A DNA stretch of 52,329 nucleotides from Escherichia phage Mangalitsa: the sequence record NC_048799.1. The stretch is one strand, 5' to 3'. Below the pieces are notes generated by a model. The model did no database searches, was not told the DNA's origin, and was given only the letters and a program-made list of their open reading frames with translations. Of the stretch, positions 8,662 to 52,329 are shown in pieces; position 1 is the stretch's first letter; the number at the start of each line of letters is the position of its first letter. Position numbers and translations under genes: made by a program.

Positions 8662-8924
8662 AAGTTGAAGAACTTGCAGACCGCTTGGCGGCAGCAAAGA
8701 AAGAGCTTGCAACACATGCTACACGTGTTAATTCTCTTAAAGCACTCCCTTCTGGTGAGGAAATCTCACTATTCACAGACAATATTTGGTTTTCAATGAA
8801 TCGTGCACAATTTATTGAGATTCAGGACCAACGTTTGGCTGAACTGGAGCAGAAAGTTGCCAGTTATGAGGGTTTACTGCAAACTTTACAAGCAACACTG
8901 GACCAGGAGCTGGGAAATGTCTAA
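8658..8924 (+). CDS. hypothetical coiled-coil protein
   Basis: ORF; Leu/Glu/Ala-rich heptads. Confidence 0.5.
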   Translation: MKVEELADRLAAAKKELATHATRVNSLKALPSGEEISLFTDNIWFSMNRAQFIEIQDQRLAELEQKVASYEGLLQTLQATLDQELGNV

Positions 8925-9315
8925 TGTTAAGTTGGGCCAACGCTCACTTGACCGACTCAAGGGTGTAAATCCCTCATTAGTGGCAGTTTTCAAGCGTGCA
9001 TGTGAAACAATGCCGTTTGATGTAACTGTTCTTGAAGGATTGCGCACTTATGAGCGCCAACAAGAGCTTTTAAAGCAGGGTGCAACCAAAGTTTCAGTTA
9101 GCCGACACATGTCAGGCAATGCTTTAGACATTGCACCATATCCAATTGACTGGAATGACCTCGAACGATTCCAAATTGTAGCTGAACACATGTTCAAAGC
9201 CGCAGAAGAGCTTGGAATTGTCATTCGTTGGGGCGGAACATGGGAGCGTTCATTCACTAAGCCAGTGAAATGGGCTAAATTCCTAGACGCACCACACTTC
9301 GAACTTCCAGCATAA
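8917..9315 (+). CDS. peptidase M15 family, T5 Lys-like L-alanyl-D-glutamate endopeptidase (endolysin candidate)
   Basis: SRHMSGNALDIAPYPIDWNDLERF, IRWGGTW and PHFEL match the zinc-peptidase signature of T5-type endolysins as recalled; ATG 8917 overlaps upstream stop. Confidence 0.7.
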   Translation: MSNVKLGQRSLDRLKGVNPSLVAVFKRACETMPFDVTVLEGLRTYERQQELLKQGATKVSVSRHMSGNALDIAPYPIDWNDLERFQIVAEHMFKAAEELGIVIRWGGTWERSFTKPVKWAKFLDAPHFELPA

Positions 9316-40863: not shown

Positions 40864-40890
40864 TGGGGAGAAATCCCCAGCTTTCCTTTA
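40864..40890 (+). terminator. candidate intrinsic terminator
   Basis: TGGGGA-GAAA-TCCCCA hairpin followed by GCTTTCCTTTA. Confidence 0.5.
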
Positions 40891-40910
40891 CATTAGTTGA
40901 ACGTGTATTA
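40891..40910 (+). promoter_or_regulatory. phage-RNAP-type promoter CATTAGTTGAACGTGTATTA
   Basis: Motif family member after the tape-measure terminator, upstream of the baseplate genes. Confidence 0.5.
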
Positions 40911-48773: not shown

Positions 48774-49859
48774 ATGGCTAAAGGCTATTCTTTAGACGCG
48801 TTGGTGCAAGAGCACTATATGAAGTCTAGTACCAACCTGGATAATATAAATATCGACACCCTTACAGGAATGGATAGTGTTGGAGTGTATTACCAGTCAT
48901 ACAACGCTTATGCCATACTTGCAAATAATTACCCTCCAGGTGCGCAAGCAGGTACTTTGGAGGTTATTCCAACAAACGTAGGCTCTGCGGGTCGTGTGAC
49001 ACAAAGATATACAAACTGGCAAGACCTTCGTATGTGGGTGCGCGGCCAAAGTGGAAGCACGACGGCGGCCGATTTAAGTTTTAGCCCGTGGGTGGAGTTT
49101 ATAAATGCCAACAACATTTATAATGCCATCTATCCGATTGGTATTGTTCTCAAGTTTGATAACGCCACCAACCCAAACAACTCCTTCACAGGAACTGTGT
49201 GGCAACAAATCACAGATGGTCGTGCTGTTCGTGCTGCAACTTCTGCTGTGGCTGGAGCTACCGATGGACAGATTGGTTCTGTAGCTGGCAGTGATTCTGC
49301 ATCAATCGCTGTAGCCAACCTCCCATCACACACCCACAACATGCGTAACCATACCCACTCTATTGCGTCCCACACGCACACTATGGCCCATACGCACTCA
49401 ATAAACCACGACCACGGTGCGGTAACATCGAGTTCGGCTGGTGCTCACACACACAGCTTGAGTGGCACTGCTGCTTCTGCTGGGAACCACAACCACAACC
49501 AGGGCGTTGCATGGGAGCATGGTGGCGACACGCAGTATGGCTCTGTTACTGTTGGTAACAAGTCGCGTCGCCAGGACTGGCTTGATGGTGGTAACAACCA
49601 GTATCCTAAGACTTCAACCAACGGTGCTCACACACATAGTGTTAGTGGTACTGCAAACTCTGCTGGCGCTCACACGCACTCTGTAGACCTGCCTAACTTC
49701 ACAGGCACAAGTGGTGGCTCCAGTGCTGCTAACACAGGCGGTACTGCCCTGACGACTGGTGCACCTAGCTCCAACGAATCGGATGCAACTGGCGGCGGTA
49801 CTGCCTTAACCGTCCGTAACTCATCTCACTACTATGCCCTCTGGAAACGAGTGGCTTAA
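48774..49859 (+). CDS. tail fiber distal protein with His-x-His repeats
   Basis: HTHNMRNHTHSIASHTHTMAHTHSINHDHG and two further GAHTHS repeats, resembling metal-coordinating HxH motifs of myovirus fiber tips. Confidence 0.55.
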   Translation: MAKGYSLDALVQEHYMKSSTNLDNINIDTLTGMDSVGVYYQSYNAYAILANNYPPGAQAGTLEVIPTNVGSAGRVTQRYTNWQDLRMWVRGQSGSTTAADLSFSPWVEFINANNIYNAIYPIGIVLKFDNATNPNNSFTGTVWQQITDGRAVRAATSAVAGATDGQIGSVAGSDSASIAVANLPSHTHNMRNHTHSIASHTHTMAHTHSINHDHGAVTSSSAGAHTHSLSGTAASAGNHNHNQGVAWEHGGDTQYGSVTVGNKSRRQDWLDGGNNQYPKTSTNGAHTHSVSGTANSAGAHTHSVDLPNFTGTSGGSSAANTGGTALTTGAPSSNESDATGGGTALTVRNSSHYYALWKRVA

Positions 49860-49866
49860 GGAAATC

Positions 49867-50208
49867 ATGGAACGCTTATCCATTCAGATGTTTCTCGACC
49901 TCATGCACCAATACGGCGTTTGGCATGGATTGCTGGCTGGCCTGACGGCTCTAATCCGTGGGGCATACGAGAGTGAGGGTTTAAGCAAGGCGTTGCTGGA
50001 TGCGACGCTATGCAGCTTAATCGGCCTGTTTGCATTTCAGGTCGCTGGCACATTTGAGACTTTCACGACTAACGTCACTATGCAGTTAGTTCTTGCGATT
50101 GTTATCGGTGTGATTGGTGCAAACCTCATTATCACAACTGTCAGGGAAAGTTTCTCTGGCGCAATCAAACAACTTAATCCTTTGACGTGGTTCAAGAAGG
50201 CACGATGA
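49867..50208 (+). CDS. putative holin
   Basis: Three predicted TM segments, basic C-terminus, AAGGAA RBS; immediately upstream of a cell-wall hydrolase. Confidence 0.45.
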   Translation: MERLSIQMFLDLMHQYGVWHGLLAGLTALIRGAYESEGLSKALLDATLCSLIGLFAFQVAGTFETFTTNVTMQLVLAIVIGVIGANLIITTVRESFSGAIKQLNPLTWFKKAR

Positions 50209-50225
50209 AATGATAAGGAACTCGA

Positions 50226-50780
50226 ATGCTATCATTCAAAGTTCTTGCACTTCTGACAGCTTTAGTTCACATCAACGCCCCAGCTTCGGTTGGGGCAGTG
50301 AATTCTGCTATTACAGATTTTGCAAGTCATTCCTATTTAAATGGAAGTCTGAAACTATCTTCTTCACAACGCAAAGAGCTAGAATGCTATACTAAAGTAA
50401 TCTGGTACGAAGCTCGTGGTGAAGATAAACATGGAAAGATTCTGGTAGCTAATGTCGTCCGTAATAGAACAGAGTTCGGGAAGCCATTCGCTAACACCGT
50501 TTGTAATGTTGTCTACCAACGCAATCAATTTGCATGGACACGAGAAGCAAAGAAGAAGAATGCTCAATGGAAGCATGTAGCAAAGATTAATTATGCCACA
50601 GAACAACAACAAGTTCTGGACACCATTAATGTTGCAATCTCTTTTGTACTATTTAATCAACCCTCTATCACCAAAGCAACTCACTTTTGTACAGCATCGG
50701 AGAAGTGCAACTTCAAGAATGTCAAAGGTCTGGGCCGCTATGGTGGACATAAATTCTATGAGTATCTAGGAAATCTGTAA
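50226..50780 (+). CDS. SleB-type cell wall hydrolase with N-terminal signal or signal-anchor sequence
   Basis: [29 protein letters not shown]...[17 protein letters not shown] matches the SleB/CwlJ catalytic-domain pattern; hydrophobic N-terminus [24 protein letters not shown]. Confidence 0.65.
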
Positions 50781-51880
50781 TGGCTTACACTACCTTTTCA
50801 CAAACCAAGAATAACCAACTACTAGAGCCAATGTTCTTTGGTCAGAACGTTAACGTTGCTCGATATGACCAACAGAAGTACAGCATCTTCGAGAAGTTAA
50901 TCGAGAAGCAGTTATCATTCTTTTGGCGACCTGAAGAGGTTGATGTTAGCCAGGACCGAATTGACTATGCCAGTCTGCCTGAATGCGAGAAGCACATCTT
51001 CACAAGCAACTTGCGTTACCAAATCCTGCTTGATTCCATTCAGGGACGTGGGCCAACCACAGTTCTGCTACCAATTGTGAGCATTCCTGAACTGGAAACT
51101 TGGATTGAAACTTGGTCTTTCTCTGAGACAATTCATTCCCGTTCTTACACTCATATTATTCGTAATATTGTCACCGACCCAAGTGTAATCTTTGATGAAA
51201 TTGTGGAGAATGAGCATATTAAAATGCGTGCAATTGGCATCTCTCAATATTATGATGAGCTTCAGCATCTCACTTCCATGTGGCATCTGCATGAAGATGA
51301 AGTAGACCTCCGTGAACTTAAGAAGAAGCTGTATTTATGCCTCATGTCCATCAATGCACTGGAAGCAATTCGCTTCTATGTTAGCTTTGCTTGCTCATTT
51401 GCCTTCGCTGAACGTAAGTTAATGGAAGGAAATGCCAAGATTATTCGCTTAATTGCTCGTGATGAAGCACTCCATTTGACCGGAACTCAACACATGTTGA
51501 ACCTACTTGCAAGTGGTGTTGATGACCCAGAAATGGCCGAAATTGCCAAAGAATGCCGTCAAGAATGCCAAGAAATGTTCGAAAATGTGGCCCAACAAGA
51601 GAAAGATTGGGCTGATTATTTGTTCAAAGATGGCTCAATGATTGGCTTAAATAAGCAAATTCTGTGCGGATATGTGGAATATATCACGAATATTCGTATG
51701 CAAGCAGTTGGATTGGATGCTCCATTCAAAGGTGCAACTAACCCGATTCCATGGATTAATGCATGGTTGAATTCGGATGCTGTACAAGTTGCTCCACAGG
51801 AAACGGAGATTAGTTCGTACCTTGTCGGGCAGATTGACTCCGAAGTTGACACCAATGCTCTGGGCGGATTTGAATTATGA
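50780..51880 (+). CDS. nrdB: ribonucleotide reductase class Ia small subunit (NrdB)
   Basis: Near-identical over long stretches to E. coli NrdB as recalled ([11 protein letters not shown]..., [16 protein letters not shown]..., C-terminal [13 protein letters not shown]). Confidence 0.9.
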
Positions 51881-51997
51881 TTGGTTACGGTGAAGGCTGA
51901 CGTTTGTCAGTTAATATGTGAGAAGAGATTCGATGCGTTAGCGTCGTTTCTCTTTGAGCTAGAATAAAACAAGTAAATTAAATATTTATTTATTCCC

Positions 51998-52014
51998 AAT
52001 ATTGCTACAATATT
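51998..52014. repeat. AATATTGCTACAATATT site (related copies at 3325 and 52184)
   Basis: Same family as the AATATTGTGACAATATT inverted repeats of the early intergenic region. Confidence 0.5.
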
Positions 52015-52056
52015 AAGAGTAATATTAGGAATGCGTAAAGTTCAAAACCAAATGGT

Positions 52057-52109
52057 ACATGGTCGGTCAACTGCACCTGCTTCAATCTTCGTTCATGGTC
52101 GGTCGACTG
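52057..52109. repeat. direct repeat ACATGGTCGGTC(A/G)ACTG, two copies 37 nt apart
   Basis: Copies at 52057..52073 and 52094..52109; a third partial copy ACATGGTCGGTT at 3594..3605. Confidence 0.5.
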
Positions 52110-52150
52110 TATCTCGCCGAAATTTGTTCGAACAGAAGTCCGACTATGAA

Positions 52151-52183
52151 ATAATTTTTTTTTTATAATTTTTTTTTATTTTT
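52151..52183. repeat. AT-rich tract with T10 and T9 homopolymer runs
   Basis: ATAATTTTTTTTTTATAATTTTTTTTTATTTT. Confidence 0.5.
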
Positions 52184-52204
52184 CAATATTGCTACAGAAT
52201 TAAT

Positions 52205-52260
52205 GAGACTAGAATTGTTACGATATTGGAGACTCGAATTTGTTCGATATTAACGAGACT
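52205..52260. repeat. three GAGACT-containing direct repeats with about 25-bp period
   Basis: GAGACT at 52205, 52229 and 52255 in similar contexts, followed by TGTGACAATATT at 52268. Confidence 0.4.
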
Positions 52261-52329
52261 CAATCTGTGACAATATTATAATTTTATTTTTGGGCCAGCG
52301 GGGAGGGGAAGCCCAACGTCCTATCGGAC

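Follow-up and report, generated by a model that had tools for sequence, protein, structure and literature searches.

Phages of the T4 type and others make a class Ia ribonucleotide reductase (RNR) of their own for the supply of deoxyribonucleoside triphosphates (dNTPs) in lytic growth, and encode both of its subunits as nrdA-nrdB pairs that are almost always adjacent. Most chordopoxviruses encode the small subunit (R2) only, and the vaccinia virus R2, F4, which keeps the catalytic residues and the C-terminal R1-binding motif, forms hybrids with the host R1 that supply dNTPs and are needed for replication (PMC2900304). Among phages, hidden Markov model (HMM) searches have listed phiEcoM-GJ1 as nrdB-only (Dwivedi et al. 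2013, PMC3653736 Table S1), and it was one of two such phages out of 128, the other being CPt10, which has a decayed nrdA (PMC3653736). Escherichia phage Mangalitsa (sequence record NC_048799.1), whose 52329-bp sequence is the window analysed here, is a phiEcoM-GJ1-like myophage (Chaseviridae, Cleopatravirinae, Carltongylesvirus) and carries an nrdB coding sequence at 50780..51880 on the + strand, the same gene at the same position as phiEcoM-GJ1 gp75 and its orthologues in ST32, flopper, PYps23T and others (90-99.5% amino acid identity). The orphan nrdB layout is already known, having been on record for this phage group since 2008-2013. The Mangalitsa gene is intact and under strong purifying selection, and its product, by sequence a real class Ia β subunit, probably runs on the host large subunit NrdA as a hybrid enzyme. 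What is added to the previous annotation of nrdB and cataloguing of its orphan status is a quantitative correction, in that the gene appears as an old, phage-adapted one rather than a near-identical host copy, together with a residue-level check of compatibility against the E. coli holoenzyme structure and the repeated occurrence of this layout in phages unrelated to the group.

The class Ia small subunit and its missing partner

The nrdB open reading frame (ORF) encodes 366 amino acids followed by a stop codon, and its product matches NF006576, the NCBIfam equivalog of class Ia NrdB, at 700.9 bits (cut-off 346 bits), with residues 1-366 aligned to model positions 1-376, and Pfam PF00268 (Ribonuc_red_sm, cut-off 33.6 bits) at 168.7 bits (E 2e-49). 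The diiron ligands D84, E115, H118, E204, E238 and H241 and the radical tyrosine Y122 (E. coli numbering; Y122 corresponds to phage Tyr123, codon 51146..51148, + strand) do not vary among nine phage orthologues, nor do the radical-transfer residues W48, D237, E350 and Y356, and E52 is kept too. An AlphaFold2 (AF2) model of the free subunit (predicted local distance difference test score, pLDDT, 84.6; predicted template modelling score, pTM, 0.84) has the ferritin-like helical R2 fold and superimposes on E. coli R2 (1MXR_A) with a root-mean-square deviation of 1.4-1.5 Å over 339 columns and a template modelling score of 0.94; the last 33 residues are disordered, and the nearest solved structures are all E. 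coli R2. Family, fold, iron ligands, Y122, W48, Y356, E350 and the hydrophobic anchors of the tail are all shared with E. coli NrdB (PDB 1MXR, 6W4X, 9DB2). On this evidence the ORF encodes a genuine class Ia NrdB with intact cofactor site and radical-transfer residues; an earlier note on this DNA had likewise read it as an NrdB. Pairwise dN/dS (the ratio of nonsynonymous to synonymous divergence) within the phage clade ranges from 0.009 to 0.08 across the nine orthologues, with dS reaching 0.76, and the protein is presumably made and loaded with iron during infection. A 494-amino-acid protein from NCBI (P0004), which scores highly as an NrdB, was set aside as an assembly artefact rather than an insertion variant, as a segment that ends in VSYTHLDVYKRQ, a translated sequencing adaptor, is repeated three times in tandem within it.

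A class Ia NrdB has its cognate nrdA in the same genome, usually adjacent, and in Mangalitsa no such gene is present. Searching the complete genome by tblastn with E. coli NrdA gave matches with E values of at least 0.4 only, and E. coli YfaE gave no match. Every ORF of at least 400 amino acids is assigned, to RNA polymerase, primase-helicase, DNA polymerase, terminase, portal or tail proteins, and no thioredoxin, glutaredoxin, ferredoxin or ATP-cone domain occurs among 20 further ORFs; a hidden nrdA, yfaE, thioredoxin or glutaredoxin gene was sought in the window by tblastn and ORF domain searches and none was found. The dNTP-supply genes that are present encode ThyX and dUTPase. An enzyme that is wholly viral, with a large subunit that has escaped recognition, is thus hardly conceivable: no point in its favour was found, and beside the tblastn result and the assignment of all long ORFs stands the finding of nrdB alone in phiEcoM-GJ1 by HMM searches (PMC3653736 Table S1). 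The window is the entire 52329-bp contig UViG_2974545116 of IMG/VR, and its end joined to its start aligns unbroken with flopper, MLP1 and PYps23T, in which the RNA polymerase gene lies about 600 bp after nrdB. To our knowledge, all RNR large subunits exceed 500 amino acids, a length that no unassigned ORF reaches. Since the end-to-start join is contiguous with three relatives, the window represents the whole genome with no part missing, and the observation of the earlier note that no large subunit is encoded in it extends to the complete phage. Within this alignment, about 150 nucleotides at 218-369 are without counterpart in flopper, MLP1 and PYps23T, so that the match breaks there and then resumes; the segment falls either ahead of the RNA polymerase ORF or within its 5' part, and a match to the phage promoter motif is found at 129.

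Compatibility with the host large subunit

The positions at which β touches α were taken from the 2.6-Å cryo-electron microscopy structure of E. coli α2β2, counting direct or water-mediated contacts (PMC11551348 Tables S9-S12), with the addition of I297, the β residue that fills a dATP-induced pocket on the α cone domain in the inhibited α4β4 ring (PMC11447812). Of these 47 positions, 43 carry the E. coli residue in the phage protein, compared with 80% identity at non-contact positions (Fisher one-sided p 0.04); the four that changed are R57Q, N131T, N343A and D368N. All 13 direct contacts outside the tail are unchanged, and so is I297. In E. coli the C-terminal β-tail inserts into α and carries E350 and Y356 (PMC11551348). 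The corresponding tail of the phage protein (residues 333-366, equivalent to E. coli D342-L375; 51776..51877, + strand), which falls in the part disordered in the AF2 model, is kept, as had been noticed from the sequence, with 26 of 34 residues identical and with 11 of the 13 direct-contact residues unchanged. The differences are N343A, V351T, V353I, D368N, D369A, S371G, N372G and Q374E.

The most economical reading, and one we consider probable, is that the phage β2 is functional and runs on host NrdA (α2). Phage NrdB would be the diferric-tyrosyl-radical β subunit of a class Ia RNR, its β2 dimer would dock via the C-terminal tail onto host α2, and the hybrid enzyme would reduce ribonucleoside diphosphates during phage replication, with the radical-generating component supplied from the phage late unit independently of host nrd expression. 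Host α2 is the most likely partner because the phage encodes no α subunit of any class, and pairing with NrdA is the most economical choice because the tail and the α-contact residues are host-like; the ThyX and dUTPase genes represent a further investment in dNTP supply. Binding to E. coli NrdA, activity of the hybrid and a benefit to the phage would follow from this arrangement. The likeness to chordopoxviruses is that only the small subunit is encoded and that its catalytic residues and C-terminal binding motif are kept, but those are eukaryotic viruses with eukaryotic hosts and the hybrid and its requirement for replication were demonstrated experimentally, whereas for the phage the hybrid is a prediction. 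In mammals R2 is the cell-cycle-limited subunit; we know of no equivalent limitation by R2 established for E. coli. If the phage β2 does run on host α2, the radical-bearing subunit would be the bottleneck of dNTP supply in infected enterobacteria, the hybrid would offer a natural cross-species system for studies of class Ia subunit recognition and dATP control, and the retention of a single RNR gene by a 52-kb phage with a T7-like RNA polymerase would be explained.

Several observations weigh against this reading. The RNR subunits of T4 and those of E. coli are not known to substitute for each other. The NrdBs of Privateer and BX-1, phages with an nrdA of their own, keep the contact residues equally well, and because NrdBs encoded beside their own nrdA score alike, the conservation of contacts speaks for compatibility with host NrdA and not for specificity. 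Five of the last eight residues of the tail differ from E. coli and two acidic residues are gone (D368N, D369A); these last eight residues are also variable among Enterobacterales. The sister genus, represented by Erwinia phage Y2, manages without nrdB. In Mangalitsa, nrdB comes last in the late operon, coupled to the lysis genes and with no phage promoter within 10 kb upstream, a position that is odd for a gene needed in DNA synthesis and somewhat at odds with a role in making DNA precursors. In the literature we found no experiment on this or related phages showing expression, cofactor assembly or binding to host NrdA, and the 2013 survey gave the function of incomplete RNR sets as unknown (PMC3653736).

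The earlier note had suggested that pairing with host R1 may boost or re-regulate dNTP synthesis. A variant of the pairing in which the gain lies in regulation, namely escape from dATP inhibition through the α4β4 ring or from repression of the host nrd operon, appears unlikely. The location of nrdB on the phage late unit necessarily frees it from control by host promoters, its product differs from host NrdB at about 18% of aligned positions and a surface hairpin has been lost, all of which would suit such a bypass. However, I297, which fills the dATP-induced pocket, is unchanged, as are N300, S295 and M296, which touch cone-domain residues; because the dATP-inhibition residues I297 and N300 are retained, nothing points to altered allosteric control, and an escape from dATP inhibition was dismissed as unsupported. 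The hairpin in turn appears in no contact table and is also absent from BX-1.

The missing hairpin, an absence that the earlier note had rightly suspected, is the sole gap in the BLASTP alignment with E. coli NrdB, ten residues at the E. coli LGEGTHTVNGKTVT segment. Alignment with MAFFT identifies the absent residues as E. coli 173-182 (GTHTVNGKTV), a surface β-hairpin, in place of which the phage protein has a short loop (residues 172-177; 51293..51310, + strand) with the junction between codons 173 and 174 (51298|51299). In the AF2 model a helix of residues 145-170 is joined by a six-residue loop to a helix of residues 177-211, with a pLDDT of 86-92 at this site. The length of the site varies within the phage clade, where the shortest form of 366 amino acids is common to Mangalitsa, ST32 and flopper while other members have 369 or 372; Mangalitsa NrdB differs from its Carltongylesvirus orthologues in such detail only. 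Because Vibrio phage BX-1, which has its own nrdA, likewise is without the hairpin, the loss is not peculiar to orphan NrdBs. An adaptation of the α interface was rejected as its explanation, given the state of BX-1 and the fact that residues 173-182 appear in no table of direct or water-bridged contacts (PMC11551348).

It is far less probable that the phage protein binds without productive outcome, sequestering or inhibiting host RNR through NrdA or through mixed NrdB dimers, or that its role lies outside nucleotide reduction. In its favour, a late, lysis-linked location is unusual for a replication gene, and a point mutant of vaccinia F4 with R1 binding retained is dominant negative (PMC2900304). 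A mere binder would, however, need none of the catalytic, iron and radical-transfer residues, which are invariant in the phage clade at a dN/dS below 0.1. Moreover, the phage has its own need of dNTPs, with ThyX and dUTPase among its products.

Age of the gene and orphan nrdB in other phages

The phage protein had been described in the earlier note as nearly identical to enterobacterial NrdB and as unusually close to the E. coli protein for an old phage gene, and neither description survives measurement. BLASTP against NrdB from an E. coli RefSeq chromosome gives 299 identities in 376 positions (80%), a DNA comparison with nrdB in all 5426 complete genomes of E. coli gives 70.8% identity, the longest identical run of DNA is 17 nucleotides, and synonymous sites are saturated. 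The GC content at third codon positions (GC3) is 42% in the phage gene and 62% in E. coli nrdB, the phage genome as a whole having 44% GC. Besides its lower identity, the phage protein differs from E. coli NrdB by the absence of residues 173-182 and by the changes at five of its eight terminal residues, and its gene by a phage-like composition and by its place in a late operon without nrdA or yfaE. E. coli and Vibrio NrdB are 79.8% identical, about the same distance as that between the phage and E. coli proteins, and because the NrdBs of other phages match enterobacterial NrdB just as well (75-79% identical), the closeness of the Mangalitsa protein is unexceptional; T4-like NrdB, by comparison, is about 51% identical to it.

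Whether the protein is closest to enterobacterial NrdB or to a phage clade, the other matter raised by the earlier note, has a divided answer. By raw identity E. coli is indeed the closest bacterium (81.7% of aligned positions; Yersinia, Proteus, Thorsellia and Vibrio reach 77-78%), but neighbour-joining recovers the phage clade as monophyletic (100% bootstrap) and places it apart from the crown group of the Enterobacterales, sharing an unresolved polytomy with NrdB of Vibrio and the NrdB clades of other phages. A position nested inside the Enterobacteriaceae was not supported, since the tree places the clade outside and parsimony quartet sites are split between a grouping with E. coli and one outside, and a sister relationship to the NrdB clade of jumbo phages received 7% bootstrap and a weak quartet signal (9:5:2 with Survivor). 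Recent capture from a host was rejected on the DNA identity of 71%, the 17-nucleotide longest run, the saturated dS and the phage-like GC3. The last three properties indicate that nrdB is an old resident, adapted to the phage in this lineage; to judge from the alignments and the tree, its donor was a gammaproteobacterium of Enterobacterales/Vibrionales type, with no finer resolution.

Megablast with this end of the genome matches 46 phage records, of which 44 encode NrdB at an amino acid identity of at least 90%, the nearest genome overall being FXie-2024a (95%). All 44 are E. coli, Shigella or Yersinia phages with a single exception labelled Staphylococcus, in agreement with the enterobacterial host that had been proposed. 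The exception, Staphylococcus phage Pel53 (PP952070.1, host given as Staphylococcus hyicus), has 87% DNA identity to the group and the same nrdB; a Gram-positive host looks unlikely for it, and the host assignment may be an error. In Escherichia virus TH53 (MT446419.1), which is about 93% identical in the nrdB region, the gene lies 272 nucleotides further along; this record likewise has 52329 bp, an equality of length that seems coincidental. In Erwinia phage Y2 of the sister genus, the holin and endolysin genes are separated from the RNA polymerase gene that follows by two tiny ORFs, without nrdB, indicating that nrdB was gained in, or lost outside, the genus of Mangalitsa.

That nrdB is missing at the same position from the sister genus, and that its place is rightmost in the unique sequence, beside the terminal repeat, where accessory genes tend to gather, would also be expected of a passenger of little present use or none, either what is left of an nrdAB(-yfaE) operon once captured or a moron at the end of the genome. 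Such a passenger status is nevertheless quite improbable: purifying selection holds across lineages with a dS of 0.7, the composition is fully phage-like (in GC3 as given above) and the gene is kept in all 44 related records, which come from several continents and hosts. A neutral passenger, like an inhibitory role, is hard to reconcile with this pattern of selection.

The nearest NrdBs in other phages to the Carltongylesvirus clade are those of nucleus-forming jumbo phages, among them OBP, pEt-SU and Pantoea phage Survivor, which have an enterobacterial-type NrdB 75-79% identical to both the Mangalitsa and the E. coli protein. Survivor, pEt-SU and related contigs also have Ala at E. coli position 369 and “GRGP”, as Mangalitsa does, while OBP is without these. 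OBP differs from Mangalitsa in being a 285-kb nucleus-forming phage of an unrelated virus type, in having kept the hairpin and in having added a YfaE-like ferredoxin. Its locus (NC_016571.1 207567-208954) comprises an nrdB whose product is 79% identical to that of E. coli (tblastn) and, directly downstream, a gene for a 2Fe-2S ferredoxin 61% identical to E. coli YfaE, and tblastn found no NrdA across all 285 kb. The OBP pair resembles the 3' two-thirds of an nrdA-nrdB-yfaE operon, and the recorded host is Pseudomonas. None of the jumbo phages of the OBP/pEt-SU/Survivor group is among the 42 phage records with an NrdA at least 60% identical to that of E. coli.

Among 80 nrdB loci from IMG/VR, nearly all that have enough upstream flank carry nrdA directly upstream, the exceptions being Carltongylesvirus, the jumbo phages and the loci L035 and L037-L042. 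In L035 (4001-6083 of a 42-kb contig) nrdB lies between genes for an N4-like RNA polymerase, an ATPase and RuvC on one side and an integrase gene on the other, and in L037-L042 (about 60-kb contigs; e.g. L040:3959-5916) it lies directly upstream of an endolysin gene; in the 9 kb covered of each of these contigs no nrdA occurs within about 4 kb of nrdB. Phages that encode β only, sometimes with a YfaE-type ferredoxin, and depend on host α may follow a recurrent strategy that evolved more than once, a generalization that we hold to be plausible, if a little short of probable. If true, β-only phages would be the prokaryotic counterpart of the R2-only layout of poxviruses, and β rather than α would limit RNR in infected bacteria.

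The late operon and the genome end

All genes of Mangalitsa lie on one strand, with that for the T7-like RNA polymerase at the left end and those for holin, endolysin and NrdB at the right end, and the order holin-endolysin-nrdB is constant in all relatives examined. The holin (49834-50208, + strand; Pfam Phage_holin_3_1) and endolysin (50226-50780, + strand; Pfam Hydrolase_2) genes belong to the same operon as nrdB. A ribosome-binding site, AGGAAAT (50768-50774), precedes the ATG start (together 50768..50782, + strand), and the same Shine-Dalgarno sequence was given for ST32 ORF79 (PMC6266442). The start codon overlaps the stop codon of the endolysin gene in the sequence TAATG, in which the A at 50780 is common to both, suggesting that translation of nrdB is coupled to that of the endolysin.

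A scan of the window with a position weight matrix derived from the nine promoters annotated in phiEcoM-GJ1 finds twelve matches to the phage promoter motif (core CATTAGTTGGAT), at 129, 2618, 2874, 3746, 6848, 10448, 10589, 10777, 12430, 12762, 21007 and 40888. All are on the coding strand, mostly in the early region, and none lies past 40888, so that the match at 40888..40907 (+ strand) is the nearest upstream of nrdB. A dedicated nrdB promoter was sought and discarded, as no phage motif is closer than 40888 and sigma-70-like matches are no commoner than in shuffled sequence. Just 3' of the nrdB stop codon two stem-loops are predicted (51895..51959, + strand), the fold of 51878-51965 having a free energy of -31.9 kcal/mol (z -4.4 versus shuffles), with a terminator-like site at 51931-51946; they likely mark the end of the late transcript. 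As no promoter follows 40888 and two stable hairpins follow the stop codon, nrdB is probably the last cistron of that transcript.

In Carltongylesvirus orthologues nrdB is followed by a terminal repeat with the RNA polymerase gene. For PYps23T, direct terminal repeats of 2.3 kb were demonstrated experimentally (PMC8762354), and by the coordinates of its record the RNA polymerase gene would lie within the repeat, which would leave nrdB as the last gene of the unique sequence. In Mangalitsa the 450-bp stretch after nrdB (51881-52329) is AT-rich and non-coding and holds several imperfect direct repeats, of 38 nucleotides at 51979/52166 (containing CAATATTGCTACA), 24 nucleotides at 52055/52091 and 23 nucleotides at 52142/52269; flopper has annotated repeat regions at the same place. 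By analogy with PYps23T these repeats lie just before the terminal-repeat boundary and could have a role in packaging or replication.

Neither ARAGORN nor a search for Rfam families finds a tRNA or other match in the window, while phiEcoM-GJ1 is annotated with a tRNA-Arg; tRNA genes are described in the literature as coming and going in the phiEcoM-GJ1 group. Besides the SleB-like Hydrolase_2 protein of the lysis cassette (50226-50780), Mangalitsa has an unrelated second cell-wall hydrolase, a Peptidase_M15_4 protein encoded in the early region (8803-9315).

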